In this document: positions 1 to 62,995 of the stretch, piece by piece
How positions within the stretch are numbered: position 1 is the first letter of the stretch
Layout of the letters: each line of letters starts with the position of its first letter
Virus genome (UHGV): UHGV-0092003
Origin: a virus
DNA length: 64,000 nt
Reading direction: 5' to 3' (one strand)
The notes under the pieces: generated by a model
What the model saw: only the letters and a program-made list of their open reading frames with translations
Told to the model about the DNA's origin: nothing
Databases searched by the model: none
Made by a program: the position numbers and the translations under genes

Positions 1-126
1 ATCATGAACCACAGTCTTGACGGCATTGATCGCGTTTATAACAAACACGACTACTTGGATCGAATGGCGGAGGCGATGGCTGCGTACTCTGAATTCTTAA
101 CAAACACATGCAGAATCAACCACTAA
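1..126 (+). CDS. 3' end of a gene entering from upstream of the window (hypothetical protein)
   Basis: Frame 1 stays open from base 1 to TAA at 124-126. The start is off-window. Confidence 0.3.
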   Translation: MMNHSLDGIDRVYNKHDYLDRMAEAMAAYSEFLTNTCRINH

Positions 127-1001: not shown

Positions 1002-3014
1002 ATGAAAAAAACTTCGGTCAAAGACATCACTAAGTTTCGAGAAGCGATTAAAAATGTCGTTTCTATGCTTGTCGCACGCAACATCCCCGTCATAGAGCGT
1101 GGAGATAAGGCATATGTTGAATACGACAAAGCCGGCAATCCACTACGCATCTGTATACCATCAATACCCGACGACGCCAGCGACAAGTTCCTGATGGCGA
1201 TACGCGGATTCATCGATCACGAGGTCGCTCACGTCCTTTTCACAGACAGTACGAAAGCCACCAGCTTCGTCTGGAACGCTGTAGAAGACACCTTCATTGA
1301 GCGAAAAATGGGGGAGATGTTCAAAGGCTCCAGAGCAAACCTCATCAACACACAAAAGCATGTAATCGATACGGTTTTCATTCCTAAAGAAATGGAGGCC
1401 ATTGCTGAAAAGCTGGGCGATCAGACCCGTATGTTTATGGAGTTCTATCTGGTTCCCGTGCTGCGTGCCTGGAATGATCAAACACCGTTCATCGACTACA
1501 TGGAAGACCGCTGGGAACGCGTTAAAGAGCCGGTATCAATCCTGATTAAACATGGCGTCGATAAGATGATCCCCAAAATAAGCAGCACGAGCGACAGTGT
1601 GGCTGTGGCCGCGCTAATTGTCCGACTGCTGGTCGACAAGCCAATGGAAAGCAAAGAACCTGACGGTTCAGATAGCAAAGAAAAAGGAAAAGGGAAATCG
1701 TCAAGCGAACCGTCCGAAGACGATTGTGGTAGTGGCAGCGATCTGCCCTGGCATGATGAGTCTGACGAGCAAGAACACTCAGACGCACCTGGAGATGGGG
1801 AGGAAAAGGGTTCCCCGGAATCATCCGAGAGCGAAGGAAGTGAAGCTTCATCGGCCGATGCAGGAAATGGCGGTTCTGCTGAATCCGAAGAAGACAAAAA
1901 GTCAGATGGTATCGGGGACGAACCGAGCGATGCAGAAAGCGGAACAGGGGATATACCAAAACCAACGAAAGGCGATCTAGAAAAGCTGGAGTCGACCAAA
2001 CTACCAAAAGGCGCCATGGATATGTCTATGGAAGGGGCAATGAAGATGATTATTTCCAGTGAATCCGAACTGTCGACAGGCTATCGTCCGTATGAGCGCA
2101 CCTACGACTTTATGGGAAGGCTTGAGCACGCGTCGGAGTTCTTCAGAAACGTTCTCGCCACTTCGCCGAAAGGGTTCCACATGTACGGTGACGCTGATAA
2201 CTACATGGTGTTCCCGAAGCATGAGGATGTCTTCAATAAGAAGATTAAACCTTTGATTGGCGATGATATCGTCGCGACACTCGCGAAAGATCTTGAGCGA
2301 ACGATAGCCAGTCAGAACCGTAATCAGTTTGTCCCAGGCCAGCGTCGCGGCCGGCTGCATGGCCCAAGTCTGTATCGCCTGTCCGTCGATGATGACCGAG
2401 TTTTTCGCAAGCTGGAGACCAAACGCGCGGTCAACTCATGCGTGCAGATTGTTATTGATATGTCTGGCTCCATGAGAGGGCAAAAAATCAAGACAGCTTG
2501 TGCAGCAGCCTACACACTGGCGGATGCATTGGCGCGTATCAACGTGAAAACGATGATAACCGGCTTCACAACATCTTCTCTGGCGATGCCTGGGAAGTCC
2601 GAGTTTAACCGCTCTGAAGCGCTTTTCCTGCCAATTATCAAGGGGTGGGAGACGCCGATATCCAGCAAACAAACGATATGCAATCTTGGCGCTCTCGCAG
2701 GTACGATGATACTGGCTGAAAATATCGATGGGGAAAGCATACTGGCCTTGCTTCAACATTTCTCTGGCCGTCAGGAAGATCGCAAGATCATGATTGTGCT
2801 CAGCGACGGAAGCCCAGCAGCTCAAGGGCACGGTTTGTCTGGGCACCTGAAAATGGTCACAAAACAGATTGAGCAGGATACCGATATCCATCTTCTGGGG
2901 ATCGGGATTTTGACAGACTCTCCGCGTCGCTTCTACCGCGACAACATCTGTCTGAACGATGTTGGTGATTTAGCCGAAACGCTCATCAAACAAATGCAAC
3001 GCCTGCTTTCGTAG
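1002..3014 (+). CDS. cobT: CobT-like protein with C-terminal von Willebrand factor A domain and central poly-acidic region
   Basis: 670 aa. vWA MIDAS motif VIDMSGSMRG plus IMIVLSDGSP. A long Ser/Glu/Asp-rich acidic linker sits mid-protein. It is paired with a CobS-like AAA ATPase, the architecture of phage/bacterial CobT. Confidence 0.6.
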   Translation: MKKTSVKDITKFREAIKNVVSMLVARNIPVIERGDKAYVEYDKAGNPLRICIPSIPDDASDKFLMAIRGFIDHEVAHVLFTDSTKATSFVWNAVEDTFIERKMGEMFKGSRANLINTQKHVIDTVFIPKEMEAIAEKLGDQTRMFMEFYLVPVLRAWNDQTPFIDYMEDRWERVKEPVSILIKHGVDKMIPKISSTSDSVAVAALIVRLLVDKPMESKEPDGSDSKEKGKGKSSSEPSEDDCGSGSDLPWHDESDEQEHSDAPGDGEEKGSPESSESEGSEASSADAGNGGSAESEEDKKSDGIGDEPSDAESGTGDIPKPTKGDLEKLESTKLPKGAMDMSMEGAMKMIISSESELSTGYRPYERTYDFMGRLEHASEFFRNVLATSPKGFHMYGDADNYMVFPKHEDVFNKKIKPLIGDDIVATLAKDLERTIASQNRNQFVPGQRRGRLHGPSLYRLSVDDDRVFRKLETKRAVNSCVQIVIDMSGSMRGQKIKTACAAAYTLADALARINVKTMITGFTTSSLAMPGKSEFNRSEALFLPIIKGWETPISSKQTICNLGALAGTMILAENIDGESILALLQHFSGRQEDRKIMIVLSDGSPAAQGHGLSGHLKMVTKQIEQDTDIHLLGIGILTDSPRRFYRDNICLNDVGDLAETLIKQMQRLLS

Positions 3015-3111
3015 CCTTTTTTTTGGCAAAGATGATAAGTAAATACTTATTTCTTTGCCTGTTATATATAAGTATCATTAGCGCATCAGAACTACTTCAA
3101 AAGGAAAACAC

Positions 3112-4362
3112 ATGTCGGTCGAATTGCAGAACAAAACAGTCGCTGAAGAAGAGAAACCTCGCGAGAACGAAGAGCAGCCTATTTCGTGCAAATGGTGTGG
3201 CGGCGAGACCCATCATGTCGGGTCTCATTTTATTGGGAAAAAATGCTCTGGTATCCCGAAAGAACACGAAGGCAAGACGCCTAATGAATTGATGAAAATC
3301 TACGTTGCTGCATTCCCTGAAGCACCGACCATGTCTGCCGCTGCAGCCAAACGTCTGAAAGAACATCAGGCCAAAAAGAAAGAAGAACCGGCTGCAGTTC
3401 ACGTTGGGTATGCCGGCTTCGAAGACTATATGGTCGAAAAGGTCGCAGTACATGAAATACTCGGTCTCGATGCTGACTTACTGAAGACGGCATCTGGCGA
3501 GCCTCTGCGCATCACCGTAAACATCAATAAGCCATTCCCGGAGTTTGTGCCAAAAGCAAACCCTGACTATGTGTTCGGCGACATCGAGCTGCTTAAAGAC
3601 GTGCTTATGATGATCGAGATGCGTATCCCTGGATATCTGTGGGGTCACGCAGGAACCGGCAAGAGTACGCTGCCAACTCAGCTTTGCGCTCGACTAAACC
3701 GGCCGATCATCCGTGCGCAGCACACCGCGTCCACTGAAGAGTCGCACATCTGCGGCCAGATTCTTGTGCGTGGTGGTGCAACTTATTTCGAGCCAGGTCT
3801 TCTGGCAAGTGCAATGCGTAACGGGTGGGTTTATCTGGCCGATGAATATGATTTCGCATTCCCGCAAATCCTTGGCGTTTACCAGCCAGTGCTGGAAGGT
3901 GAACCACTGATCATCAAAGAAGCAACCCCGGAGTGGCGCTACGTCGAACCGCATAAACGATTCGCTTTCATCGGAACCGGCAACACCAATGGTTCCGGTG
4001 ATGAAACTGGATTGTACCAGGGTACGAATATCCAGAACGCAGCGAACTTCTCTCGTTTCGGTATCGTCTCACACGTCAAGTACATGGATAGGTCTCATGA
4101 GTCCGCGATGCTTGAGAAAATGGGTTTACCGAAAGTGTACGCGACCATGCTTATCGATTTCGCAACCAGAATCCGTAGTGGGTATGAGGCAGGAAATATC
4201 AGCCAACCCATCGGGCCGCGTGAACTTCGCAATGCAGCATTGATCGGAATGGCGCACAAAAACTTCAAGAAAGGCGTCACGAAGTCTTTCATTAACAAGC
4301 TGCCTTCCACCAGCGCGGTATCCGCAACCGAGATAGCGCAGCGCGTCTTCGGTGATGAATAA
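3112..4362 (+). CDS. cobS: CobS-like AAA+ ATPase (MoxR-type)
   Basis: 416 aa. Walker A GHAGTGKST and Walker B VYLADEYDF. N-terminal CxxC-x-H (CKWCGGETHH). Preceded by the conserved AAAGGAAAACACATG initiation region. Confidence 0.65.
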   Translation: MSVELQNKTVAEEEKPRENEEQPISCKWCGGETHHVGSHFIGKKCSGIPKEHEGKTPNELMKIYVAAFPEAPTMSAAAAKRLKEHQAKKKEEPAAVHVGYAGFEDYMVEKVAVHEILGLDADLLKTASGEPLRITVNINKPFPEFVPKANPDYVFGDIELLKDVLMMIEMRIPGYLWGHAGTGKSTLPTQLCARLNRPIIRAQHTASTEESHICGQILVRGGATYFEPGLLASAMRNGWVYLADEYDFAFPQILGVYQPVLEGEPLIIKEATPEWRYVEPHKRFAFIGTGNTNGSGDETGLYQGTNIQNAANFSRFGIVSHVKYMDRSHESAMLEKMGLPKVYATMLIDFATRIRSGYEAGNISQPIGPRELRNAALIGMAHKNFKKGVTKSFINKLPSTSAVSATEIAQRVFGDE

Positions 4363-4543
4363 AGGTTGTTTTGGTTCAGCATTGACAGCCTCAGAAAAAA
4401 GCGAGATCTGCGCCCGGTGTGGTGACAGATCTCGCTGTCATGATGAAGCCCGCAAAAATATTGAGGCTATGTTTGGAAAGTTTGTCGGATTCCCGATTGA
4501 CAGCATTAAAAATAAAAAAAGAACTACGAAGGAAAGCACATGA
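4352..4543 (+). CDS. small Cys-rich ORF (uncertain)
   Basis: 63 aa with CARCGDRSRC. It overlaps a perfect 10-bp-stem hairpin (4408-4442). May be non-coding. Confidence 0.2.
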   Translation: MMNKGCFGSALTASEKSEICARCGDRSRCHDEARKNIEAMFGKFVGFPIDSIKNKKRTTKEST

Positions 4544-6912
4544 AGGCATTAATGGTACGCACCGATTTTTCTCTTGGTGAGTCGGCGTTGAAAGCAAGCC
4601 GCGTCGTCGCGGTCGCGAAGGAGTTGGGTTACTCGGCCATTATTAGTGCCGACACAATGAATCTGGCGTCCATCATCCCATTGCAGCAGTCGGCCGGCGA
4701 CGACATGGCTGTTATTTGCGGAGTCCGTTTGGTTATTAGTGACAATCCTTTTTATGAAGCAGCTGTTAGAAAAGCCAAAGAGGAAGGCACTGAGATCCCG
4801 GTATGCAAGCTTGGGCGCCCGTACAGCTTCACCGCGCTGATAAAGAACGATGAGGGGTATAAAGATCTGTGTGAACTGATGACGTTGGGCAACCGCCGCG
4901 AGCAGTTTCACTTTTTCCCGCGCATCTCGCTGGAGCAGCTGGCCGAAACGTATTCAAAGGGCAACATCCTTCTGCTGACGTCTGATCGCGATAGCATATT
5001 TCATCGGCAGGACTTCGTTAAAATCCTGACTACATTGCTGGCGGCTGGTGGTCGTGACAACTTCTACAGCGTCGTGTATCCGATTCCTACGCCTCTCTAC
5101 GATCAGTTGAACATGAAGGCGATGAAGGTGGCTAATGCGCTTAAAATCGCCCCTGTTGCGTTCTATCCAGCTTATTACGAGAAAGAAGAGGATGCAGACC
5201 TGCGCGACATTGCGCACATGGTAATCAATAACATCAAAACGGATCAGCCATATCGTTTTCACATCCCACACCAGCGCGACAACTCAATCCAGAACCGCAA
5301 GCATTTGTTGGTTCGCTTGATGGAGTTCTCGAAACGCATGGGAGTAGAGGGAATCAGCTCTGCAATGGTTAACGAGACTCAGGACGAAATCATTGCGGCG
5401 TGCAGCTGGCGCTGGCATGAGATGCCAGTCAGTCTGCCAGTTATGGCGGAAGATGAAGGTGATACGTTGACGCGCATGGCGGCGGAAGGTTTGAAGCGTC
5501 GGTTAACAACGCTTGAATTTGGCTGGAAGCCACCAGCGGAGCAGTACCCTGTCTACATCAACCGTCTACGTTATGAGTTGAGTGTTTTGAAAAAGTTGGG
5601 GTTCTGCGGCTACTTCCTGATGGTTGAAAATCTACTGTCATGGGCGCGTAAACAGGATATCCCGGTCGGGCCAGGTCGTGGATCGTCAGCCGGTTCACTT
5701 GTTGCGTGGGCGATTGGGATCACCAACATCGACCCGCTACGCCACGGTCTCCTGTTTGAGCGTTTCATCAACCCTGAACGTCTGGACTTGCCTGACGCGG
5801 ATCTGGACTTCAGTCAGGCGCAACGACCTCGCGTACTTGAATATCTCGAAGAGCACTACGGCGAAAAATACGTGGCCGGCATTCCTAACTTCTCTTATCT
5901 GGGTATGGCGTCGGCACTCCGAGACACAGCACGTATCTACGGCGTGTCAACGGAAGATATGGCGGTATCTAAGCAGCTGAAGCCATTCGATGATGAGGGA
6001 TTAACTCTCGAAGAGACGCGCGAGCAGCTGGGCGCCCTCGACAAATACGCGAAAGCAAACCCGGAAGCATTCGACGCCGCGTGCAAACTCCAGTCACTGA
6101 TGCGCAGCTATGGCAAGCACGCCGCGGGTGTCATCGTTTCTGGCGTACCACTGACTGAGCGAACACCAGTCGAATTACGCAACGGGGTGCGCTGTATCGC
6201 GTTTGACAAGCGTTTCTGTGAATCAATGGGGCTTATCAAGCTGGACGTGTTAGGGCTGGCTACGCTCGATTTACTGGCTCTCGCTAAACGCTACATCAAA
6301 GAGAACGAGGGGATCGACGTTAACCTCGACGCAATCCCTCTCGATGATAAACGCGTCCTTGAGGGTATGGCGTTGGGTGAAACAACTGGCGTGTTCCAGT
6401 TCGAGTCTGGCGGCATGAGAAACCTGCTTAAAAACCTTGGAAGCGGCATCAAACCAATGTCGTTTGAAATGGCCGTCGCAACTACCGCGCTATATCGCCC
6501 AGGCCCAATGCAGTCCGGCATGATGGATACCTACGTCAGCGTTGCGCGTGGTTATGAGGACGCTCACTCACTTCACCCAAGCCTTGACGAATTGACCAAA
6601 GAAACCAACGGGGTTTTGGTCTATCAGGAACAAATCATGAAAGCGTCGCAGATCCTCGCCGGCTTCTCTCTGTCGGAAGCAGATATGGTAAGGAAGGCGA
6701 TTGGTAAAAAAGACATCGAGAAGATGAAAAAGATTGGCGCCGACTTTTCAGATCGTGCGCAGCTTGGTTGGTTGGAAGTCCAGACTGACGACGGCCAGAT
6801 TGTCACTGTTCATCGCGCCGCGCTTCATCCGTGCTCTGATGGCAAGAAACGCACTGTCGAGCAAGCCATGGAAGATGATGCCGACATTATTGAATTTGAC
6901 ACCTCTAAATAA
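4540..6912 (+). CDS. dnaE: DNA polymerase III alpha (DnaE-type), N-terminal portion: PHP plus palm/fingers
   Basis: 790 aa. Canonical DnaE motif GYFLMVENLLSWARKQDIPVGPGRGSSAGSLVAWAIGITNIDPL. The PHP-like N-terminus continues to AIGKKDIEKMKK, which matches E. coli DnaE AMGKKKPEEMAK. Ends in TAATAA. Confidence 0.85.
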   Translation: MKALMVRTDFSLGESALKASRVVAVAKELGYSAIISADTMNLASIIPLQQSAGDDMAVICGVRLVISDNPFYEAAVRKAKEEGTEIPVCKLGRPYSFTALIKNDEGYKDLCELMTLGNRREQFHFFPRISLEQLAETYSKGNILLLTSDRDSIFHRQDFVKILTTLLAAGGRDNFYSVVYPIPTPLYDQLNMKAMKVANALKIAPVAFYPAYYEKEEDADLRDIAHMVINNIKTDQPYRFHIPHQRDNSIQNRKHLLVRLMEFSKRMGVEGISSAMVNETQDEIIAACSWRWHEMPVSLPVMAEDEGDTLTRMAAEGLKRRLTTLEFGWKPPAEQYPVYINRLRYELSVLKKLGFCGYFLMVENLLSWARKQDIPVGPGRGSSAGSLVAWAIGITNIDPLRHGLLFERFINPERLDLPDADLDFSQAQRPRVLEYLEEHYGEKYVAGIPNFSYLGMASALRDTARIYGVSTEDMAVSKQLKPFDDEGLTLEETREQLGALDKYAKANPEAFDAACKLQSLMRSYGKHAAGVIVSGVPLTERTPVELRNGVRCIAFDKRFCESMGLIKLDVLGLATLDLLALAKRYIKENEGIDVNLDAIPLDDKRVLEGMALGETTGVFQFESGGMRNLLKNLGSGIKPMSFEMAVATTALYRPGPMQSGMMDTYVSVARGYEDAHSLHPSLDELTKETNGVLVYQEQIMKASQILAGFSLSEADMVRKAIGKKDIEKMKKIGADFSDRAQLGWLEVQTDDGQIVTVHRAALHPCSDGKKRTVEQAMEDDADIIEFDTSK

Positions 6913-6928
6913 TAAGTAAAATGTGAAA

Positions 6929-6982
6929 ACAAGTTGTTTTTTAGCTTCTGAAAACAACTTGTTTAATAACAAAGGGAAACAC
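6929..6982 (+). promoter_or_regulatory. two tandem dyad promoter elements inside the dnaE split junction
   Basis: AAAACAAGTTGTTTT and GAAAACAACTTGTTTAA, followed by AAAGGGAAACACATG. Confidence 0.5.
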
Positions 6983-8143
6983 ATGAAGATTACTAAAATC
7001 ATCTCAGAGAAGCCCGGACTCAGCGAATCAAAAGCAAAAGAGGTATGGGATGCTTTCGAGAAATTCGGGTCGTATGGCTTTAACAAATCACACGCAGTGG
7101 CCTATACCGCAATCAGCTACCAGGCAATGTATCTGAAGACTCACCATCCGGCTGCATTCTTCGCCGCCGCACTGACAATTCAGGACGATGAAAAGCATCG
7201 TGCAGTTGTAAAGGATGCGCTGGCACGCGGCGTTATCGTGATGCCACCAGACATCAACCTCTCAACTGACCGCATCGAAATAGTCGAAATGAAGGATGGT
7301 CGGACGGCGTTATATGCCCCCTTCTCAGCTGTCAAAGGTTGTTCTGAAAAAGGCAGCTTAGCCATTATGCGTGCTCGCGAGCGTGTAGGTGGTAAGTTTG
7401 AGTCGCGAGCACAATTTAAGGAAGCGATAGAAGCCAGACTCTGCAATATCCGGGTTCAGGAGGCTCTGGAAGCCGTTGGCGCGTTTGCCAGTATTGAGCC
7501 TGGCAGCGAACCAGCGATGGCGGAATCCCGCCGCAAGGCTCAATCAGAGCTGATGGGAAGCCTCATTATCGATGCGGTAAAAGTGAGTCGCCCGTTCGAG
7601 ATGAATCCGAAACGCCAGGCTGAAGTGTCAATGTTGATGGAAGAGCTGCGTAAAGAGGTCGGGGTGGGCGAAGATCTCGTTACCCCGCATATCGGCGTAT
7701 CGCCAAAAATAATGATTATCCTCGACACAGCAAACGGCAACGATATCAGGACGGGGATCTTCATGGAGAACGGCTACGAAGATTTTAAGGCGAAAATGCT
7801 CGTTAATGGCGATCTGCGCATGAGCGAGGTGTACGTTACCGGCGTCATTAAGCAGGATAAGAAGTTGCCACTGTCCCGCGACGCAGAGAACACCTACATC
7901 GAGTTTATGAAGAAAGAGCTTGAGCTGGTTAAACCAACCTACGTCCTGACGTGTGGTCGCCTGTCGGCCAGTCTCTTCAACGACAAAACCAAGGCAACGG
8001 ATTTGGTCGGACGTAAGGAATACTTTGGCGCAATGGACTTGACCGTATTTTACGGATTCAATCCGGGTATACTTCACTTCAGACCGGAAGAAGGCGAGAA
8101 ACTGGAACTTATTATGGAAGACATTAAGGAGGCATTGTCATGA
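6983..8143 (+). CDS. dnaE: DNA polymerase III alpha (DnaE-type), C-terminal portion
   Basis: Starts at ATG 6983 with its own AAAGGGAAACACATG RBS; the track ORF begins 60 nt earlier. YGFNKSHAVAYTAISYQAMYLKTHHPAAFFAAAL matches DnaE [33 protein letters not shown]. It continues the colinear alignment interrupted at 6912. Confidence 0.8.
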   Translation: MKITKIISEKPGLSESKAKEVWDAFEKFGSYGFNKSHAVAYTAISYQAMYLKTHHPAAFFAAALTIQDDEKHRAVVKDALARGVIVMPPDINLSTDRIEIVEMKDGRTALYAPFSAVKGCSEKGSLAIMRARERVGGKFESRAQFKEAIEARLCNIRVQEALEAVGAFASIEPGSEPAMAESRRKAQSELMGSLIIDAVKVSRPFEMNPKRQAEVSMLMEELRKEVGVGEDLVTPHIGVSPKIMIILDTANGNDIRTGIFMENGYEDFKAKMLVNGDLRMSEVYVTGVIKQDKKLPLSRDAENTYIEFMKKELELVKPTYVLTCGRLSASLFNDKTKATDLVGRKEYFGAMDLTVFYGFNPGILHFRPEEGEKLELIMEDIKEALS

Positions 8144-12800: not shown

Positions 12801-13091
12801 TGCAAAGATTCGGTCTTGACGAACACAGCGAAGAAGACATCATTTGATACCTTCATGCTATGCCATATATTGACTCTGCCAATGACTTCATCATAGATTG
12901 TCAAGGTGGTGAATCCCCCTGAGCGGTGGGGCGACCAGTCAGTTACAGTGATCTGTAAATGCAGCGCGAGCCATGTCGGCTGGGACATGCTCACCGGGAG
13001 GCACCCGGCACCACAAGCGTTACTAAGCAAATTCGTAGCAGAATTAACCCCTTGTTAACCCTGTTATGTTTAACAAATCCAATTTCAACCC

Positions 13092-17340: not shown

Positions 17341-17679
17341 ATGAAAACGATTTTTGCAGCTACCCTGACTATCCTGACTTTGCTACCGAATGTAGGCAAC
17401 TCAGCCGTGATGAAATGCCAGATGAACATTATGCGCATAGAGAATGGCGAAATGTCCGGCGCTCCGCATCGTATTGCAGAGGCGATCCTGACAGCTGACT
17501 CCCGTCAATTCTATGCCGTGGTCGGTGAGCGAATAATCAGCTCGCCTATACTATCGGAGAACAAAGGTAATTTGGCCGCTTACCATTCTGGCGCCGCTTA
17601 CTTTATGCGAAAAGACTCCTTCGGCGTGATCTACGACGACTTTGGTTATGTGTTTGATGAATGTGAAAAGGTGGCATGA
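17341..17679 (+). CDS. secreted hypothetical protein
   Basis: 112 aa. N-terminal signal peptide MKTIFAATLTILTLLPNVGNSA. Confidence 0.5.
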   Translation: MKTIFAATLTILTLLPNVGNSAVMKCQMNIMRIENGEMSGAPHRIAEAILTADSRQFYAVVGERIISSPILSENKGNLAAYHSGAAYFMRKDSFGVIYDDFGYVFDECEKVA

Positions 17680-17894
17680 TGAATAACATTGCTAACAGTA
17701 TTGAAATTGAAAAAATCAGACCATATTGGCGTGCCAAGGGCTTTACCCGCCCGGACGACTTCTCAACCAGGTTAGAGCGAAACGACTGTCAGATTGTGTA
17801 TCGCTACCGCTCGTGGCAGATGATTGAAAATGGTGAGACGAAGGCGAAGGCTAAATCACATCGTCTCTACAATCTTCTCTCATCGATCACCTGA
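17676..17894 (+). CDS. hypothetical protein
   Basis: 72 aa. ATGA overlap with the upstream gene. Confidence 0.45.
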   Translation: MMNNIANSIEIEKIRPYWRAKGFTRPDDFSTRLERNDCQIVYRYRSWQMIENGETKAKAKSHRLYNLLSSIT

Positions 17895-17908
17895 CATTAG
17901 ATAAATTG

Positions 17909-17961
17909 TTAGTGGTTACTAACCCTTTGATATCAACGTCTCACAGGTTAGTAACCACTAG
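17909..17961. repeat. 16-bp inverted repeat with nested GGTTAnTAACC palindromes
   Basis: TTAGTGGTTACTAACC ... GGTTAGTAACCACTAG. 15 of 16 positions are complementary. The ~20 bp spacer is not T-rich. Confidence 0.7.
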
Positions 17962-17995
17962 GGGGCTAAATGAAACCCTCTCAAAATGACTCCTG

Positions 17996-18257
17996 ATCGA
18001 AGTCACCGCTGGCGGCATAGTGTACCGCTGACAGCATATCAATTACCGCTGGTAACATACATTGAGCCGCTGACAGCATATCTACAACCGCTGACAGCAT
18101 ACGAAATAAAAAAGCCCTCTATTCGAGGGCTTAAATTTGGTGTGAATAAACGATTCCAGACCTTCCTAATCACCGCTGACAGCATATCTAATAGTCAAAT
18201 CACCGCTGGCAGCATACCATTTGCCGTTCACAGCATATATTGCACCGCTCAGAGCAT
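17996..18257. repeat. iteron array (incA-like), ~9 copies of CCGCTGACAGCATA(T/C) in two sub-clusters
   Basis: Copies at about 17996, 18015, 18037, 18058, 18079, 18171, 18201, 18221, 18243. Spacing is ~21-22 bp. A hairpin (AGCCCTC/GAGGGCT, 18108-18135) separates the sub-clusters. Confidence 0.8.
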
Positions 18258-18258
18258 A

Positions 18259-19371
18259 TCAAAGCAACTTCAGACCGTTACTAAGTATCTCAATTAGCTT
18301 TATATTCTCAGGCGTCAAATCCGCAGAAAGTTCAGCTATCTTCTTGATCATGTTTTGTTTTACGACTTCCAGCTCGCCGTTCTCTTGTGGCCCTTCCACT
18401 TGCTCTGCAGGCTTCTCAGGCTTCGGCGGTTTCTCTTCACCAATGACTTTAAGTTTCGGGTTGCGTCCATGAATCTGAATAAATACAGAGCGACCACGCT
18501 TCACCTCTGAGTAATCGAGGTAGCCAAGCTCTTTAAGAGACTTCAGACCGTTTCGAATGGTCTGATTTTGGGAGCTGATGCTTGCGCTATTCAGATTCAA
18601 CCTCGCACGCAAACGAGCCAGAGATATTGGTGCCGGCCGCGCCGGAAGACTTTCAATGAAGGTGTATAGCGCCTGGGCGGTTTCTTTACGTGGAAGTTTG
18701 TTGATGACCTTCAGCTGGAGAAGAACTTTGTGGTCAAACCGGTATAGCTCTGACAGCTTTGGCTCGGCGTGAAATATGATGGTGTCATTTTTCTCATTGT
18801 AATCCACGCTATTCACCAGATGAACCATGAGCAGAGATATCTTGTTCGAGCCGTCCACGTTCTTCTCTTCGTATGTGCGCTGGAACGAAAGCGTTGTGCG
18901 CATTATCTTCAGCAGGCTGTTTGTAATCCTGTCTCGCAGCGTCTTGCGTATCTGGGAAGATGGATACCCGCAGAACTTGGCAAACTTCGTGATGCTTAGC
19001 TCAACGCGCCCACTGGCCTCCCCATACTCGGCAAGTGATCGGACGACACCAACCCACGTCTTGAAGTCGTGATCCATATCGAGACGTGGCCCGGTTATTT
19101 TGATATCGGAATAACCCTCAGATCTCGCAACCTCCAGTTGCACCAGTTCTTTTGAGGCGTCTATCTGGTTGGAGTTATTTCGTTTACTATTCTTCGTGCC
19201 TTTGAGCGTGGGAACGAACAATCCAAGTCTCATCAACGCAATGGGTTGTACGGTATTGTTGCTGTTCGGGGTGAGGTCGCCTGTGAATAACGCCGGAACA
19301 CTTTCGTCGATCGCGTCATCATCATCGATTAACGGTATGTTTTCTTTCTTCTTTTTTTTGCCTGTGGACAT
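18259..19371 (-). CDS. repA: iteron-binding replication initiator (RepA-like), putative
   Basis: 370 aa minus-strand gene. Flanked on both sides by arrays of the same 15-mer, as in the P1/F replicon layout. N-terminal poly-Lys/acidic region. Product assigned by context only. Confidence 0.55.
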   Translation of the reverse strand: MSTGKKKKKENIPLIDDDDAIDESVPALFTGDLTPNSNNTVQPIALMRLGLFVPTLKGTKNSKRNNSNQIDASKELVQLEVARSEGYSDIKITGPRLDMDHDFKTWVGVVRSLAEYGEASGRVELSITKFAKFCGYPSSQIRKTLRDRITNSLLKIMRTTLSFQRTYEEKNVDGSNKISLLMVHLVNSVDYNEKNDTIIFHAEPKLSELYRFDHKVLLQLKVINKLPRKETAQALYTFIESLPARPAPISLARLRARLNLNSASISSQNQTIRNGLKSLKELGYLDYSEVKRGRSVFIQIHGRNPKLKVIGEEKPPKPEKPAEQVEGPQENGELEVVKQNMIKKIAELSADLTPENIKLIEILSNGLKLL

Positions 19372-19389
19372 GTGGACACCTCATTGCTT

Positions 19390-19494
19390 AAACCGCTGGT
19401 AGCATACTTCATTTGCCGTTAGCAGCATACACAAAACAGTCCACAGCATATCGCACGCCGCTCGCAGCATATATTTTTCCGCTGACAGCATACG
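19390..19494. repeat. iteron array (incC/origin-like), 5 copies of the same 15-mer family
   Basis: ACCGCTGGTAGCATAC, GCCGTTAGCAGCATAC, CACAGCATAT, CCGCTCGCAGCATAT, CCGCTGACAGCATAC. Lies immediately upstream of the rep start codon. Confidence 0.8.
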
Positions 19495-19529
19495 CCAATG
19501 GTCTTTCAGAGCAGGCGTGGCGCGGGTTG

Positions 19530-19620
19530 CGAGGATCGGGGATCTCTTTTGATCTCATATATGATCTATATAGGGATCTTATTATTGGGATCTATCCAGT
19601 TGATATGTGGATAACTTTTC
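19530..19620. other. oriC-like DNA unwinding element: six GATC-initiated 13-mer-like repeats plus a consensus DnaA box
   Basis: GATC at 19534, 19541, 19551, 19563, 19575, 19589 (GATCTCTTTTGAT, GATCTCATATATG, GATCTATATAGGG, GATCTTATTATTG, GATCTATCC). TGTGGATAA at 19606-19614 is a perfect TTATCCACA on the opposite strand. Confidence 0.7.
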
Positions 19621-19687
19621 AAGGCATTTTAGTACGTGAGCCTTGTTTTTGGTTTAATGTGATAAAAAATACAAGGCCAAGCATCAA

Positions 19688-20335
19688 ATGAATATCAAAC
19701 AGTCGCGTTACATCAGAAGACTTGAAGATGGGACTTACACCATCAAGCCTGACTCTAAACTGGTTGCTTCCAGGGACATGTGTGAGGTTTGCGGCATCAA
19801 AACCGCCTGCCCGATCTACAAGACTCGGGCATCACTGCTGGAACAGGGAGCGTCATTTGAAATCAATACATGCAAACGATACGTCCCGCTCATCTCCTTC
19901 AGAAAACCTTATCTTGGTTTAAAGGAGGCATACTTCAACACAATGCGCAGCGGCGTAACCTGGGTCAACCGCGTTAGTGAAAATTCTATTGTTTGCCTGG
20001 TTGGTGCTGAGAACGGTGAGATCATACGCTTTGCGCGCGTCGCAAAGGTGTTCTCTGGCCCCGTCGACAAAATGCTCAAGATAAACGCCAGGTTCAACCA
20101 TCTATGTCTCGGCGGAAAAACTCAGGACGAGGTAAAAACTGTTATCCAAAAGTCATACGGCCACTTCCTGAAAGAAGACAGCTTGCTGACGGTAATCTAC
20201 CTGAAGAGTCTAAAGCACGAGCACGATTGGGAATATCACACCGAAGAAGAAATTCGAATGATGGAGGACGTCACCCCGCCAGATAACGTCGTGAGTCTCG
20301 ATGAGTTAAGACGTAGATTCGAAGAGAAGATTTAA
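19688..20335 (+). CDS. hypothetical protein with CxxC...CP zinc-finger-like motif
   Basis: 215 aa. CEVCGIKTACP. Immediately adjacent to the origin. Confidence 0.5.
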   Translation: MNIKQSRYIRRLEDGTYTIKPDSKLVASRDMCEVCGIKTACPIYKTRASLLEQGASFEINTCKRYVPLISFRKPYLGLKEAYFNTMRSGVTWVNRVSENSIVCLVGAENGEIIRFARVAKVFSGPVDKMLKINARFNHLCLGGKTQDEVKTVIQKSYGHFLKEDSLLTVIYLKSLKHEHDWEYHTEEEIRMMEDVTPPDNVVSLDELRRRFEEKI

Positions 20336-35758: not shown

Positions 35759-35926
35759 AACGTTGCAGAAAAGCCCCTCGTGGGCTTTTTTGTCTAACTA
35801 GTACCATCGCACCACCAACACCAAGAAAATGCGATCCCTTCCTTTCTATGGCTGATCCCGATGTATTCGTCTTGTTAGTTCTCTCTAACTCTGTAAAATA
35901 AGTAAATGTTTACCTATTGGTGTGGT

Positions 35927-36559
35927 ATGAACGGATCTCAGAAAATTAAAAAACGTGAGCGCGACGGCAACTTGCGCGATCTCTGGAGAACGCCTCTGTG
36001 GTTATTTCGCGCCATTGAGGTTTATCTGGGAGTGAAGTTTCAGGTTGATGTCGCGTGCAACAAAGATAACGCGATCCTGCCTGATTTTATAGGCGTCGAG
36101 CGTGACGCGCTGAAGTCGAGCTGGGGAGAGCCTGGTACTGTGGCATTCCTGAACCCGCCCTATTCCAAAATCAAACCATGGATAGACGCCGCGGCGCGTG
36201 AACAAGCCAATGGCGTTACGACCGTCATGCTTGTCCCTCAGTCCCTCGACACTCAGTGGTATCTGGACGTTAAGCGCAGCGCGAATCAGACCGTGCTTAT
36301 TGTTGGCGGTCGCGTCGCTTTCATGGAGCCAGACACAGCGCTGGGATTGGTTGAAGTACGCGAGAATACTGGCGGCAGCATGTTGCTGGTCTTCCGGGGC
36401 TTCTGTGGCGCTGCTGGACACCAGACGACGGAGATCGACATCGGCGTGATGAAATTGTTGGGTGGCTATGATCCACTAACGGCGAAACGGAAGCCACGTA
36501 AGAAGCCTGTTAAGAAAGCATCTCCACCCCTTAATAAAAAGACTTTAAAAGCGCTTTAA
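35927..36559 (+). CDS. phage Dam-family N6-adenine DNA methyltransferase
   Basis: LWRTPLWLFRAIEVY and VAFLNPPYSKIKPWI (motif IV NPPY). The short overall architecture fits the small phage Dam family. ATG 35927 is preferred to the track start at 35906. Confidence 0.75.
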   Translation: MNGSQKIKKRERDGNLRDLWRTPLWLFRAIEVYLGVKFQVDVACNKDNAILPDFIGVERDALKSSWGEPGTVAFLNPPYSKIKPWIDAAAREQANGVTTVMLVPQSLDTQWYLDVKRSANQTVLIVGGRVAFMEPDTALGLVEVRENTGGSMLLVFRGFCGAAGHQTTEIDIGVMKLLGGYDPLTAKRKPRKKPVKKASPPLNKKTLKAL

Positions 36560-55659: not shown

Positions 55660-56373
55660 ATGGATTGTATCAAAAATATGGACGTTAAAATCAGTATTTT
55701 GACGGTGGAGACAGCGCAGTTACGGCCGAATCCCTGGAATACGAATGTCGTTGGCGCTCGAAACTTCGACAAGCTGAAAAACTCAATCGACCGGCTTGGC
55801 TTTTTTAAGCCGATTCTGGTTCGTGAGTTGCTGGACGGCACTTACGAAATTCTCGGTGGGGAGCACCGCTGGCGTGCCGCTATTGAGCAGGGTATGGCAA
55901 CCGTTCCAGTCACCTCCGTTGGCGTGATTGATGACAACACCGCCAAGCAGATGTCACTGGTTGATAATGAGCGTTACGGTGAAGATGATGCCGTCGAGCT
56001 GCAGCGCCTTATTGAAAGTATTCAGGCTGAAATTGACTATTCGCTGGCAGATATTGCCCCGTATGACGAGGAAATGACTGAAACGCTGGCGCGTGAGTCC
56101 AGTATCGACCTGGAAGAGCTGGGTCTGTTGGGCGAAGAGGAAGATCACGTCGTTGAGCCGGACACTCGCGAGAAGAAGGAGCGTCTTGGCGTTGAACACC
56201 AGACTATGCGCTTCAAGGTTTCGTTTGACACGGCAGAGAGCGTGACGGAAGTCATCAAAACTATCATCCGGGAGCAGGGGATTAAAACCGGCAGCGAAAT
56301 GGAAGACGCTGGCGAAGCTCTGGTGTGGCTCACTCAATATTACAAGGACGTGACCGATGAAAAAGTCGTTTGA
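55660..56373 (+). CDS. ParB N-terminal (ParB/Srx nuclease-like) domain protein 1
   Basis: 237 aa. LRPNPWNTN...FFKPILVREL.DGTYEILGGEHRWRAAIEQG. Acidic C-terminal half. Confidence 0.65.
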   Translation: MDCIKNMDVKISILTVETAQLRPNPWNTNVVGARNFDKLKNSIDRLGFFKPILVRELLDGTYEILGGEHRWRAAIEQGMATVPVTSVGVIDDNTAKQMSLVDNERYGEDDAVELQRLIESIQAEIDYSLADIAPYDEEMTETLARESSIDLEELGLLGEEEDHVVEPDTREKKERLGVEHQTMRFKVSFDTAESVTEVIKTIIREQGIKTGSEMEDAGEALVWLTQYYKDVTDEKVV

Positions 56374-57031
56374 AATTCAGTATCTCGATCCGCGTACTCT
56401 CATCCCGTATGAGAAAAACGCCAAAAAGCACGATGAGCGCCAGATTAAAGACCTGGCTGCAGCCATCATTAGTCGTGGATTTGACCAGCCAATCACCGTT
56501 GACAAGCATCGTGTAATCATTACCGGCCATGGTCGTCGTGAAGCGGCTCTGGTGGCTGGTTTGGCTCTTGTGCCTGTCATTGTTCGTGACGATCTGACAG
56601 AAAGCGCTGTGCGAGCGAAACGTCTCGAAGACAACCGCTTAGCCAGTATCGATTATGACGCTATTCGTATGCAGGAAGAGCTAAACGAACTACTTCAGGA
56701 CGAAGACGTTGAGATCTACGGCTTTGACGAGCGTGAGTTGAAGGTTTTCATCGAAGACCTGACCGAAAAAATGGCTGACGATACGTTGATCGACGACCTG
56801 AATGAAGAGGCTGAGCGCCAGCGAGAAGAGCATAAAGCGATAACGGAAGAAGTCGCCGGTGGCAGAACTCGCATCATCGACATTCTGGGGTTCAAAGATG
56901 TGCCGACCAGCAGTGCGATCGCCGTTGGTGATTTGTTGGCTCACATGGAAGAGAAAACCGGTCTGATGGGAGAAGCCGCTTTTATTGCCTTTGCGGAGAA
57001 GATTTCCGAAGAGGTGGCCGAGTATGAGTAA
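56357..57031 (+). CDS. ParB N-terminal domain protein 2
   Basis: 224 aa. LIPYEKNAKKH...GFDQPITVDKHRVIITGHGRREAALVAGL. Acidic coiled-coil C-terminus. Confidence 0.65.
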   Translation: MKKSFEIQYLDPRTLIPYEKNAKKHDERQIKDLAAAIISRGFDQPITVDKHRVIITGHGRREAALVAGLALVPVIVRDDLTESAVRAKRLEDNRLASIDYDAIRMQEELNELLQDEDVEIYGFDERELKVFIEDLTEKMADDTLIDDLNEEAERQREEHKAITEEVAGGRTRIIDILGFKDVPTSSAIAVGDLLAHMEEKTGLMGEAAFIAFAEKISEEVAEYE

Positions 57032-59545: not shown

Positions 59546-60133
59546 ATGACAGAATCCGCAAAAAAAACGCGCCTGTCTCCGGCGCAATGGGCAGAAATTG
59601 AGGTTAAGTGGCGCTCAGGCGAATACACCTTATCGATGCTCGAAGAAGAGTACGGAACTCGCTCTGAGACGTTCTCGCGGTACTTCAAAAAGAAGGGTAT
59701 CGCTAAAGGCTCAGACAGTGTCGGGGAGATGATCCGCGAATCACTGAAGTCGGATGCCGAAATTCGTGCGCGTGCGCGTGCGCAAAAAGTGGAAAGCAGG
59801 AAAGAGGAGTACGACAAGTGGGCTATCTGGCTGAGCGGTCTCACCATTAATCAGATCGCCACCGCCAAGAAGGAAGGCCGCTCACTTAGTTTAGTTGAAG
59901 ACGATATTAAGTCCCTCCAGCGTGCTGCCGCTGTCGTTCAGAAGTGCTTCGACGTGTCGAGCCGCGCTCTCGGTCTGGAAAAAGATGACGTTATTACTGA
60001 CGAAATCCCGAATCTTGTTTTCGGCGAGCTGACTCCGGCCCAAGTAGATGAGCTTAAAAAAATGGACGAGGACAACCTTGTCGATGAAGAGGATCTGTTC
60101 CTTCCAGATGTAGAAGACGAGGGGGAGGAATAA
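59546..60133 (+). CDS. terminase small subunit (putative)
   Basis: ATG 59546 with SD GAGGG. N-terminal HTH-like region (LSPAQWAEIEVKWRSGEYTLSMLEEEYG). Acidic C-terminus. Immediately upstream of TerL with TAATG overlap. Confidence 0.55.
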   Translation: MTESAKKTRLSPAQWAEIEVKWRSGEYTLSMLEEEYGTRSETFSRYFKKKGIAKGSDSVGEMIRESLKSDAEIRARARAQKVESRKEEYDKWAIWLSGLTINQIATAKKEGRSLSLVEDDIKSLQRAAAVVQKCFDVSSRALGLEKDDVITDEIPNLVFGELTPAQVDELKKMDEDNLVDEEDLFLPDVEDEGEE

Positions 60134-61389
60134 TGGCTATTCCATCATCCCTGAGTCTGGTTCAGTTGCATTCGGGGCAGATGAAGGTCTTCAAGTCTCC
60201 ACATCGTTTTAAGGTTGTTTGTGCCGGTCGACGCTGGGGTAAGTCTCGTCTGTCGATCTCCAAAATTATAAAAGCCGCCGCTGCCAATCGTAAGCAGCGC
60301 GTCTGGTATGTTGCGCCGACATACCAGATGGCACGTCAAATCCTGTGGGATGACCTGCAGGAAGTGCTGCCGCGTAAATGGATCGCGAAGAAGAACGACA
60401 CCACGATGACTATCGTCCTAAAAAACGGTAGTGAAATTGCACTGAAGGGCGCTGATAAGCCTGATACGCTGCGTGGTGTTGCGTTGAACTTTGTCGTGCT
60501 CGACGAGTTTCAGGATATGAAGCCCGATACCTGGTACAAGGTACTTCGTCCGACACTTTCGTCTACTCGCGGCGGGGCGCTTATCATCGGAACACCAAAG
60601 GGATTCTCAGAGTTCCATAAACTTTGGATGATAGGCCAGAACCCGGAGATGCAAGCGAAAGGTTTGTGGAAGAGCTGGCAGTTTGTGACCGCGGATTCTC
60701 CGTTTGTTCCAGACAGTGAGATCGAGGCGGCGAAGAATGATATGGACCCTAAATCGTTCGCGCAGGAGTACCTTGCGTCGTTCGAAAACATGTCTGGGCG
60801 CGTATATTACCCGTTCGATCGCAACGTGCATGTCAGGCCGCTACAGTTCAATCCGCGTTTGCCAATCTGGGTTGGTCAGGACTTCAACATCGACCCAATG
60901 TCCTCGGTGATCCTGCAGCCGCAGCCGAACGGTGAAGTATGGGCTATTGATGAGGTTGTTCTGTTTTCGTCGAATACCTCAGAAGTGTGTGATGAGCTGG
61001 AGAGACGTTACTGGCGTCAGAAAAGCCAGGTCACGATTTTCCCTGACCCGGCCGGCGCATATCGACAGCACGCTCGCGGTGAGTCTGATGTGGACATCTT
61101 CAAGGAGAAGGGGTTCATGCGAGTGGATCACCCGAAGAAGCACCCACCGATTGCCGACCGCGTGAACGCAGTAAACAGGTTGCTGCTGACCGCTTCAGGT
61201 GACGTTCGTCTGTACATTGATCCGAAGTGTAAGCATTTGATTGAGTCACTTGAGAAGGTGATTTACAAACCTGGCGGTCGAGATATTGATAAAACAGGGA
61301 ACGTCGAGCACAGTGCCGATGCTCTGGGTTATCCAATTCATCGTCGCTTCCCGGTTAAAACTCGTGTTATTCTTGGCGGATCTAGATAA
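60133..61389 (+). CDS. terminase large subunit
   Basis: 418 aa. Walker A VVCAGRRWGKS. Walker B NFVVLDEFQDM. C-terminal RNase-H-like nuclease region with conserved Asp (GQDFNIDPMS, FPDPAG). Confidence 0.8.
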   Translation: MAIPSSLSLVQLHSGQMKVFKSPHRFKVVCAGRRWGKSRLSISKIIKAAAANRKQRVWYVAPTYQMARQILWDDLQEVLPRKWIAKKNDTTMTIVLKNGSEIALKGADKPDTLRGVALNFVVLDEFQDMKPDTWYKVLRPTLSSTRGGALIIGTPKGFSEFHKLWMIGQNPEMQAKGLWKSWQFVTADSPFVPDSEIEAAKNDMDPKSFAQEYLASFENMSGRVYYPFDRNVHVRPLQFNPRLPIWVGQDFNIDPMSSVILQPQPNGEVWAIDEVVLFSSNTSEVCDELERRYWRQKSQVTIFPDPAGAYRQHARGESDVDIFKEKGFMRVDHPKKHPPIADRVNAVNRLLLTASGDVRLYIDPKCKHLIESLEKVIYKPGGRDIDKTGNVEHSADALGYPIHRRFPVKTRVILGGSR

Positions 61390-61420: not shown

Positions 61421-62995
61421 ATGGAATTGTCGAACAAAATGATTCAGGATCTGGTGAATCGCCGCCATCCTGATTATGAGCTACGAAAAGCTCATTGGGA
61501 CTTTATCGCAGCCACCTACGCCGGTGGCCGCACTTGGTTTAAAGATAACATCTTCCGCTACTTTAAGGAGGGTGATGCCGAGTTCAAGGAGCGTCTGGAA
61601 CGCGCTTACCGGTTTAACCATACCCGCGAAGTCGTGAATCTGATTAATAAATATCTGTTCAAAGAGGACATTCAGCGCTGCGAGGATGATGCCCCGCCGT
61701 CAGTGAAGGAGTTCTGGAAGCGAGCAACCCGTCAGAATATGAACATTGATGATTTTATGGTTGAAGTAGACCTCCAGTCTTCAATTTATGGCCGTATCTG
61801 GGTGGTTGTTGATAGCACCGTATCGGGCGACATCGAGTCGAAAGAAGACCAGAAAAAGTCTGATGGCCGCGCCTATGCATATTGGGTTTCACCTCAGCAG
61901 ATGCTGGACTGTGCTTGGGATGAAGAGGGGAATCTGAGTTGGATTCTGATCTGCGAAGTGAGCCGCGACGACGCTGACCCCTTCACCTCATCGGGTAAAG
62001 AGTTCCTGCGTTACCGTCTATGGACGAAAGACCACTGGTATCTTTTCCGCGAAGATCGCAAGGGGCAGCGGTCAGGTAGTAGAACGAAAGTTGTTTTGGA
62101 AGATACTGGAGAGCACGGTCTCGGCATGGTTCCTGTCTTCCCTGTTGACTGTATGGGTCAGAGCGAATCGCCGTACTTCAGTCCATCACTGATTGACGAT
62201 ATTGCCTATCTCGACCGGGCTGTTGCCAACTATCTGTCTAACCTTGATGCCATCATTCAGGATCAGACATTTTCGCAACTGGCTATCCCGGTTCAATCTC
62301 TCTTGCCTGGTGACGCTGACCACAAGAAGGTTCTTGAGTTTGGCACGAAACGCGTTTTCACCTATGACGGTGAAAATGGCGCCCAGCCTTTCTATCTGTC
62401 GCCAGACCCAAAACAGGCGAGCATGATCATTTCGACCGTCCAGCAGATCATCAACGAGATTTATCACTCTGTTGGTGTTGCTGGAGAGCGCACGAAGCAG
62501 GACAACGCAAAGGGTATCGACAACTCCAGCGGCGCAGCCAAACTGTATGACTTCCAGCGAGTAAATAGTCTACTCATCAATAAATCGAGTCGCCTGCAGC
62601 GAGCCGAAGAAATGTTGATGACGCTGGTAACTGCATGGATGGGTGAGAAGATGCCAGAGGGCGAAGAATTGGTCACGTACCCGGAGAGTTTCGACATCCG
62701 TGGACTGGTTGATGAATTCGAAGTCGCGAGCAACCTGAAAGATCTTGAAGCGCCAGATTCTGTCCGTCGTTATCAGATGGAAATCCTTATCGATAAAATC
62801 TTCCCGAATCTTTCCAAAGACAAAATGAAGGATATTGAGAAAGATTTATTGCAATTTCCTCCAAAAAATGACGCCTTGGCACTTGAAAGTAAGTTAGCAC
62901 TTACTTATGATAAAGGTACGGCCCGAGAAAATGGGCAAGAAAAATCCCAAGGAACCGGGAAACCATCACCCAAGAAACCGGGTAATGACGAATAA
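61421..62995 (+). CDS. portal protein (putative)
   Basis: 524 aa. Position directly after TerL and typical size. Basic C-terminal tail. Confidence 0.55.
   Translation: MELSNKMIQDLVNRRHPDYELRKAHWDFIAATYAGGRTWFKDNIFRYFKEGDAEFKERLERAYRFNHTREVVNLINKYLFKEDIQRCEDDAPPSVKEFWKRATRQNMNIDDFMVEVDLQSSIYGRIWVVVDSTVSGDIESKEDQKKSDGRAYAYWVSPQQMLDCAWDEEGNLSWILICEVSRDDADPFTSSGKEFLRYRLWTKDHWYLFREDRKGQRSGSRTKVVLEDTGEHGLGMVPVFPVDCMGQSESPYFSPSLIDDIAYLDRAVANYLSNLDAIIQDQTFSQLAIPVQSLLPGDADHKKVLEFGTKRVFTYDGENGAQPFYLSPDPKQASMIISTVQQIINEIYHSVGVAGERTKQDNAKGIDNSSGAAKLYDFQRVNSLLINKSSRLQRAEEMLMTLVTAWMGEKMPEGEELVTYPESFDIRGLVDEFEVASNLKDLEAPDSVRRYQMEILIDKIFPNLSKDKMKDIEKDLLQFPPKNDALALESKLALTYDKGTARENGQEKSQGTGKPSPKKPGNDE

Follow-up and report, generated by a model that had tools for sequence, protein, structure and literature searches.

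The window analysed here, a stretch of 64,000 nt of viral DNA (UHGV virus genome UHGV-0092003), contains at positions 18006-19614 what is very probably the plasmid-maintenance replicon of a Klebsiella phage-plasmid of the SSU5 supercommunity, homologous to the oriR-repA-incA replicon of phage P1. The evidence that was observed consists of the anatomy of the locus, the homology of its protein and of its origin, the conservation of the layout, and the circular, plasmid-sized records in which relatives are found. An earlier note on this DNA had proposed two arrays of one 15-mer around a minus-strand gene of 370 amino acids (aa), with five copies upstream and about nine downstream; the positions and shuffled controls confirm this, and the interval that it gave (17996-19640) encloses every element described below.

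Features of the replicon (window coordinates; strand; description):
18006-18102; minus; incA-like array, distal group of five direct iterons, starts 18006, 18025, 18046, 18067 and 18088
18102-18132; minus; intrinsic-terminator-like hairpin, AAGCCCTC-GAATA-GAGGGCTT and then TTTTTTATTT on the repA strand, in the gap between the downstream groups
18173-18259; minus; incA-like array, proximal group of four direct iterons, starts 18173, 18203, 18224 and 18245
18259-19371; minus; repA, Rep_3-family initiator of 370 aa, from the open reading frame (ORF) call and homology; predicted to bind the iterons
19363-19379; minus; two back-to-back DnaA-box-like motifs, GTGTCCACA and ATGTCCACA, each matching TTATCCACA at seven of nine positions; they overlap the repA ATG (19371-19369)
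19393-19493; minus; origin iterons (incC equivalent), five direct copies, starts 19393, 19416, 19437, 19458 and 19479
19494-19533; minus; GC-rich spacer (65% G+C) with CGCGCCACGCCTG, homologous to the P1 oriR spacer
19534-19592; no strand; six-GATC cluster, (A/G)GATC(C/A/T) repeats in A+T-rich DNA, aligning with the five annotated Dam sites of P1 oriR
19598-19614; minus; left DnaA boxes, one perfect (TTATCCACA, 19614-19606) and one degenerate that overlaps it (ATATCAACT, 19606-19598)

Two arrays of one iteron bracket repA

On the repA strand the repeated unit reads RTATGCTGYNAGCGG, usually followed by a pyrimidine, and neighbouring copies mostly lie 21 bp apart. The 14 copies around the 370-aa gene, five upstream and nine downstream, are in phase and share a single orientation. 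A search of the window with the 15-mer CCGCTGACAGCATAY at up to two mismatches returned 10 copies, all on the plus strand and all within 18025-19493; the shuffle control gave a mean of 0.15 copies, and none of 100 shuffles reached 10. At up to three mismatches, 13 of the 16 matches in the window fell in the replicon region. By coordinate, the origin iterons are spaced 23, 21, 21 and 21 bp; the middle one (19437) has four mismatches yet is in phase, and is the most degenerate copy in relatives too. The downstream copies, oriented like those of the origin, start 19, 21, 21 and 21 bp apart in the distal group and 30, 21 and 21 bp apart in the proximal group, with 85 bp between the groups (70 bp between copies), and the last of them (18245) abuts the repA stop codon.

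The identical 5/4/5 pattern occurs on other contigs with identical RepA, and the iteron core TATGCTGTCAGCGG is found in the window and in all relatives whose RepA is 77-81% identical, including those on contigs from Klebsiella sp. BIGb0407 and from Rosenbergiella, a genus of a different family, that are 109 and 115 kb long. Five origin iterons at 21/21/21/22-23 bp, repA, and an array beginning at the stop codon are common to the window, P1, JK004 and the SSU5-like elements PhiR41_1 and pJN2-26. Initiator and iteron co-vary across the family, P1 and JK004 having TGTG(T/C)GCTGGAGGGA, SSU5 CTATCCACTGTAG and the window's lineage TATGCTGTCAGCGG. The downstream array varies among close relatives: it is 5+4 in PhiR41_1 and 4+4 in pJN2-26, and two others (L019, L020) have fewer, looser copies.

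The hairpin between the downstream groups has a stem of eight pairs (18132-18112), five of them G-C, followed by a T-run. It is the probable repA terminator, and the repA transcript probably ends past the first four control iterons. A terminator scan of pJN2-26 found no equivalent of the hairpin at 18112-18132, so it is not conserved across the subfamily. A 103-aa ORF (17986-18297, plus strand) runs through the 21-bp iterons and encodes a seven-residue repeat, PLTAYxx; the seven-codon (21-bp) period most likely accounts for this ORF, which would then be an artefact. The PhiR41_1 record has a similar small 'hypothetical protein' annotated within its array.

The initiator is a homologue of P1 RepA

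The earlier note had taken the 370-aa protein for a Rep_3-type initiator. In a profile search against Pfam, residues 120-239 matched Rep3_N, which is the WH1 domain of iteron initiators, with 37.6 bits (cut-off 22.4) and an E-value of 3.6e-9, in agreement with that assignment. Among PHROGs the protein matched phrog_775 over residues 30-309 (E 2.5e-130); repA in the P1 record bears the product label of this family, 'replication helicase'. In tblastn searches of phage records, RepA was 45.5% identical to P1/P7 RepA over residues 32-309 (E 2e-68), which settles its identity, and 51% identical to SSU5 RepA. Over its full length it was 77-79% identical to the RepA proteins of PhiR41_1, pJN2-26, ST13-OXA48phi12.3 and vB_Kpn_1825-KPC53, all SSU5-like elements of Klebsiella or E. 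coli.

An alignment of six RepA proteins has 99 invariant columns, with the P1-homologous core conserved. SSU5-lineage RepA proteins, that of the window included, have two additions that are missing from P1 and JK004 RepA (286 aa): a Lys/Asp-rich N-terminal extension (codons within 19280-19371) and a C-terminal tail of ~60 aa (18259-18440), made up of a Pro/Glu/Lys linker and a conserved terminal helix, LTPENIKLIEIL. The exact 370-aa sequence is present in 428 blocks of the sequence collection and gene calls on many public contigs give it this length.

The origin retains the host-factor sites of P1 oriR

Beyond the upstream array the earlier note had placed a GATC-rich, A+T-rich element with a DnaA box, and all of its parts are there. 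The six GATC sites (19534, 19541, 19551, 19563, 19575 and 19589) make this 70-bp stretch the maximum of the 64-kb window, no other stretch of that length holding four or more. The A+T content of 19534-19660 is 65%, against 51% for the window as a whole, and the perfect DnaA box at 19606-19614 is one of three in the window. The left boxes align with the tandem TTATCCACATTATCCACT of P1, which is annotated as a DnaA binding site. The second pair of DnaA-box-like sequences (TGTCCACA motifs), at the repA start codon, is conserved in PhiR41_1 and pJN2-26 (TATCCACATGCCCACA) and aligns with the right-hand DnaA-box region of P1 and JK004. A Shine-Dalgarno sequence for repA, GAGGTG, lies at 19382-19377. 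A search of Rfam found no RNA family within the replicon.

In a blastn comparison, the segment comprising DnaA boxes, GATC cluster and spacer aligned with P1 oriR at 79.8% identity across 104 nt (E 4e-19). Within it, the window's TTATCCACA-TATCAACTGGATAGATCCCAATAAT... corresponds to TTATCCACATTATCCACTGGATAGAT-CCAATAAT... of P1, and ...GATCCCCGATCCTCGCAACCCGCGCCACGCCTG to ...GATCCCTGATCGTTGCAGGCCGCGCCACGTCTG. The iteron block is only 45% identical to that of P1 in the alignment. Thus the origin has kept the sequences that serve host factors, while those specific to its initiator have diverged, and a six-way origin alignment (window, PhiR41_1, pJN2-26, SSU5, JK004 and P1) shows this modular pattern as well. 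By analogy with P1, the GATC cluster is predicted to be a Dam-methylated unwinding and SeqA-sequestration element. The window also encodes a Dam-family N6-adenine methyltransferase of its own (35906-36559, plus strand; Pfam Dam, E 4.7e-34), which may be relevant to the six origin sites.

Predicted control of replication

The mechanism that we propose is that reportedly established for P1 by Abeles, Austin, Chattoraj and colleagues, read together with the annotation of the P1 record; binding, autorepression, copy control and dependence on Dam and SeqA are all carried over from P1. RepA monomers would bind the five direct iterons at 19393-19493, and host DnaA would bind the boxes on both flanks (19598-19614 and 19363-19379), RepA and DnaA together opening the methylated GATC/A+T-rich repeats. 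After initiation, the six GATC sites, then hemimethylated, would be sequestered, so that immediate re-firing is blocked. The nine downstream iterons (18006-18259) would hold the element at low copy number, both through titration of RepA and through pairing with the origin iterons (handcuffing), and this array would also be an incompatibility determinant.

Origin-bound RepA may further repress its own promoter, a step for which the argument here is one of position. Only 21 nt, GAGGTG included, lie between the repA ATG and the last origin iteron; the promoter must therefore lie across the iterons or upstream of them, and is expected within the block of origin iterons (19393-19493). The last iteron interval is longer than the others, at 22 bp in P1 and JK004 and at 23 bp in PhiR41_1, pJN2-26 and the window, and falls at the -10 of P1.

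A phage-plasmid of the SSU5 supercommunity

The window is collinear with, and 95-100% identical to, the K. pneumoniae plasmid pRHB30-C05_4 (NZ_CP057316.1), which is circular, 110,717 bp long and non-mobilizable, and in which rep_cluster_2469 is the sole replicon typed by MOB-suite. This plasmid has genes for portal, terminase, major capsid, tape-measure and tail proteins, as well as for a primase, a ligase and a DnaB-like helicase. Within the window are the genes of a terminase large subunit (60133-61389) and an SPP1-type portal (61421-62995). A 1.8-kb query covering the replicon matched 170 PLSDB plasmids, 157 of them from Klebsiella and 167 non-mobilizable; 24 matches had at least 95% identity, 27 held at least 80% of the query, and the 20 records listed were 108-116 kb long. 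Among 5,426 complete E. coli genomes there were no chromosomal matches and two partial ones, both on plasmids. The contigs that carry the exact RepA are mostly 50-200 kb at their longest; three blocks fall at 0.2-1 Mb and none above 1 Mb. A megablast search of the phage collection returned only a partial match of 243 nt, close relatives being filed as plasmids.

Phage-plasmids of the SSU5 supercommunity comprise SSU5/pHCM2, pKpn, pSLy3 and pMT1 groups (Pfeifer et al. 2021, PMC7969092), and on sequence grounds the window's element is assigned to this supercommunity. SSU5 itself is a phage isolate, and PhiR41_1 was deposited as a phage genome record. The terminase and portal genes, the circular 110.7-kb relative, the PLSDB matches and the lack of E. 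coli chromosomal matches all agree with the earlier note, which had suggested a plasmid prophage in a phage genome.

One of the premises of that suggestion, that the window has no integrase, is unsafe. Positions 1-126 (plus strand, frame 1; ...IMNHSLDGIDRVYNKHDYLDRMAEAMAAYSEFLTNTCRINH*) are the last 41 codons of a tyrosine-recombinase gene, whose product is 68% identical to the C-terminus of the 'site-specific integrase' (349 aa; Pfam Phage_integrase, E 2e-9; phrog_1) that NZ_CP057316.1 encodes at the equivalent position. A fragment at 68% in an otherwise 97%-identical plasmid suggests allele replacement at this spot. P1 also encodes a tyrosine recombinase, Cre, which resolves dimers and does not integrate the phage, so such an enzyme is no argument against plasmid maintenance. 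The plasmid-prophage conclusion therefore rests on the database evidence and not on the absence of an integrase.

The recombinase is also one of two reasons to ask whether the repeats are attL/attR or other recombination sites flanking an integrated module, and not iterons. The other is the record of pJN2-26 (MZ779062.1), in which two 20-bp repeats around the rep gene (1378-1397 and 2648-2667) are labelled attR and attL. These labels coincide with the origin and incA-like iterons of pJN2-26 and are likely a misannotation. In the window there are 14 copies and not two, in phase at 21 bp and in one orientation; the arrays match the experimentally defined RepA iterons of P1 one-to-one, lie on either side of the gene for a RepA homologue and border a DnaA/GATC origin like that of P1, and the records are circular plasmids. 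We accordingly rejected recombination sites as an explanation, on copy number, phase, orientation, the correspondence with P1 and the circular records, and regard it as highly improbable.

Contrary evidence and alternative explanations

Several results weigh against a P1-type replicon that maintains this element. An NCBIfam scan placed RepA in no family, and a sequence search of the PDB gave only chance-level matches (E of at least 0.17). A scan of 17850-19750 for consensus sigma-70 promoters found none, and the positions homologous to P1 PrepA hold only TTGTGT-17-TGAAGT in the alignment, a weak match. Contrary to the earlier note, the downstream array is not arranged as in P1: the count of nine and the start at the stop codon agree, but P1 incA has three direct and six inverted copies at 30-41 bp, whereas the window has nine direct ones, mostly at 21 bp and divided 4+5 around the terminator, so that handcuffing geometry is not simply transferable from P1. 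P1 has parAB-parS after its array, whereas no partition operon adjoins the array in the window. The contigs of 0.2-1 Mb with repA may represent cointegrated or integrated copies. Lastly, a related Klebsiella element, p2 of Kp1604, was not inducible as a phage (PMC8969562), so the phage status of this particular element is not proven.

One long contig illustrates the matter of location: JAKFOA010000003.1 (GCA_054180905.1), of 436,234 bp, has identical RepA and the same iteron pattern, with repA at ~328-335 kb. Cointegration, integration or misassembly could each account for this location.

The lack of a consensus repA promoter would fit an inactive relic, with the element maintained by some other system, for example its own Pol III alpha (4540-8143), DnaB-like helicase and primase working at a different origin; helicase, primase and ligase genes are indeed present in the related record. 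Polymerase, helicase and primase genes are, however, of the kind that phages use for lytic replication. The repA ORF is intact, its exact product recurs throughout the 428 blocks, the core, count and spacing of the iterons are kept in relatives whose RepA is only 77-81% identical, Rosenbergiella included, and this is the sole replicon that MOB-suite types in the closest plasmid. A relic is thus an unlikely explanation.

A narrower alternative grants that the origin works as proposed but gives the nine downstream repeats another main role, for example in partition, as a centromere-like site, or as an insulator or roadblock to transcription against the convergent genes at 17341-17894. It draws on the differences from P1 incA (all copies direct, two-turn spacing, a terminator inside), on the missing par operon or parS next to the array, and on the wide variation in number and spacing between relatives. 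The repeats nonetheless match the origin iterons, so that any RepA bound to them is withdrawn from the origin; the start of the array at the stop codon is conserved with P1, and the P1 record lists incA as an incompatibility determinant; and extra arrays of origin-type iterons are negative control and incompatibility elements in other iteron replicons. We give this alternative little credence, and all three taken together only a small share of the probability, the remainder going to the P1-type replicon.

A further proposal concerns the changes seen in the SSU5 lineage. The C-terminal RepA tail, the Lys-rich N-terminus, the DnaA-box-like motifs at the start codon and the all-direct, two-turn array split by a terminator could amount to a mechanistically distinct copy control, or to a coupling with the lysis-lysogeny switch, and not to neutral drift of the P1 scheme. 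Independently of this, the iteron core held in common with IncFIB(pKPHS1) elements could render the two Klebsiella phage-plasmid lineages mutually exclusive. As a whole, these proposals are doubtful.

No partition genes lie beside the replicon, the adjoining ORFs being small, convergent and without assigned function. A single ATPase resembling ParA was seen, a 222-aa protein with matches to AAA_31, MipZ and CbiA; the related plasmid encodes it in a part that the window does not cover. As ParA/ParB candidates, the large ORFs at 1002-8143 were rejected, since they encode CobT/AAA_5 and Pol III alpha proteins. Two adjacent ORFs with ParB_N domains (237 and 224 aa; 55660-57031, plus strand) closely precede the packaging genes and have no neighbouring ParA gene.

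Other features of the window

Divergent from the origin is a 215-aa ORF (19688-20335, plus strand) that matches phrog_2105, has several Cys pairs and gave no Pfam match; by position, a 214-aa ORF stands in the same relation to repA in PhiR41_1, pJN2-26 and SSU5, but not in P1. The homologue of Pol III alpha is split between two plus-strand ORFs, the first (4540-6912) with PHP, NTPase and finger domains and the second (6923-8143) with HHH_6 and a weak UDG-like match. The PLSDB gene table of the related plasmid lists nothing at this place, and the split gene may be a pseudogene or naturally divided. Beside the polymerase genes, a pair of ORFs at 1002-4362 (plus strand) encodes a CobT-like VWA protein of 670 aa and an AAA_5 ATPase of 416 aa. 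The sole Rfam match in the window is STnc100, a gammaproteobacterial small RNA, at 12875-13071 (plus strand; full-length, 74.8 bits against a gathering score of 47). No tRNAs were found in the window.

Significance

The type of element and its replicon are already catalogued (PMC7969092, PMC9241755), and near-identical sequences have been deposited many times. Among the papers searched there was no published iteron map of the SSU5, pKpn, pHCM2 or pMT1 replicons; a 2026 phage-plasmid preprint with many mentions of repA proved to concern an unrelated family and was set aside. The fine anatomy given here is a modest gain for annotation and does not amount to a novel class of system: in public records the iterons carry no annotation or, in the case of pJN2-26, two of them appear as attL/attR. 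This anatomy also defines a 1.7-kb candidate minimal replicon for Klebsiella vectors, bears on typing, in that this lineage may escape identity-based schemes while sharing the iterons of IncFIB(pKPHS1), and yields predictions on incompatibility between phage-plasmid lineages able to carry resistance genes.

Comparison with known systems

The nearest typed relative is pJN2-26, whose rep gene is 95% identical to the PlasmidFinder target for IncFIB(pKPHS1) (PMC9241755). According to a 2025 preprint (10.1101/2025.09.12.675607), the SSU5 (IncFIB) replication gene is already covered by typing tools. The window's rep gene does not closely match the IncFIB(pKPHS1) target. pJN2-26 shares with the window the core TATGCTGTCAGCGG, the five-iteron origin, the full-length RepA extensions and the flanking genes; its RepA is 77.3% (tblastn) to 80% (alignment) identical to that of the window, and its downstream array is 4+4 where the window's is 4+5. 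In GArcari phages, which have RepA of the pJN2-26 type, the replicon DNA is 78.6% identical by megablast over 13% of the query only. Judged from these sequences, the window's replicon is a sister lineage of IncFIB(pKPHS1) with the same iteron core, and the common iterons predict cross-incompatibility between the two.

SSU5 is more distant. Its RepA, at 51% identity, has the C-terminal extension in common with the window, whereas its iteron is CTATCCACTGTAG and its downstream array includes inverted copies, against the TATGCTGTCAGCGG core and all-direct array of the window. Both SSU5 and pJN2-26 have a 70-aa ORF annotated as 'Cre-associated' that is, by position, the apparent counterpart of the window's flanking 72-aa ORF. 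SSU5-like elements have been classed as siphoviruses (PMC9241755).

The fullest comparison is with P1/P7 (IncY), to which the earlier note had likened the layout; every element of the oriR-repA-incA layout proposed there was found when the window was set against the annotated P1 record. On the repA strand that record runs from the DnaA site through five Dam sites, five RepA iterons (incC), repA and nine iterons (incA) to the par operon, with the PrepA -35 and -10 between or within the last incC iterons and incA copy 9 ending where the repA stop begins. Shared with the window are a homologous initiator, the parts in equal order, iteron counts of five and nine, a first downstream iteron at the repA stop, an outer edge with tandem DnaA boxes, GATC cluster and GC-rich spacer, and a second DnaA-box region beside repA; the origin iterons are spaced 21/21/21/22 in P1 and 21/21/21/23 in the window. 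The differences are in detail: the P1 iteron is GATGTGTGCTGGAGGGAAA and that of the window RTATGCTGYNAGCGG; P1 RepA has 286 aa and the window's, with its N- and C-terminal extensions, 370; P1 has five GATC sites and the window six; and the DnaA-like boxes of the window, unlike those of P1, overlap the repA start codon. The P1-specific incA arrangement and adjoining parAB-parS were not found in the window, but these mark P1 itself and not the class of replicon, relatives varying in their incA arrangement. Although P1 is a phage unrelated to the SSU5-like element of the window, it too lysogenises as a plasmid.

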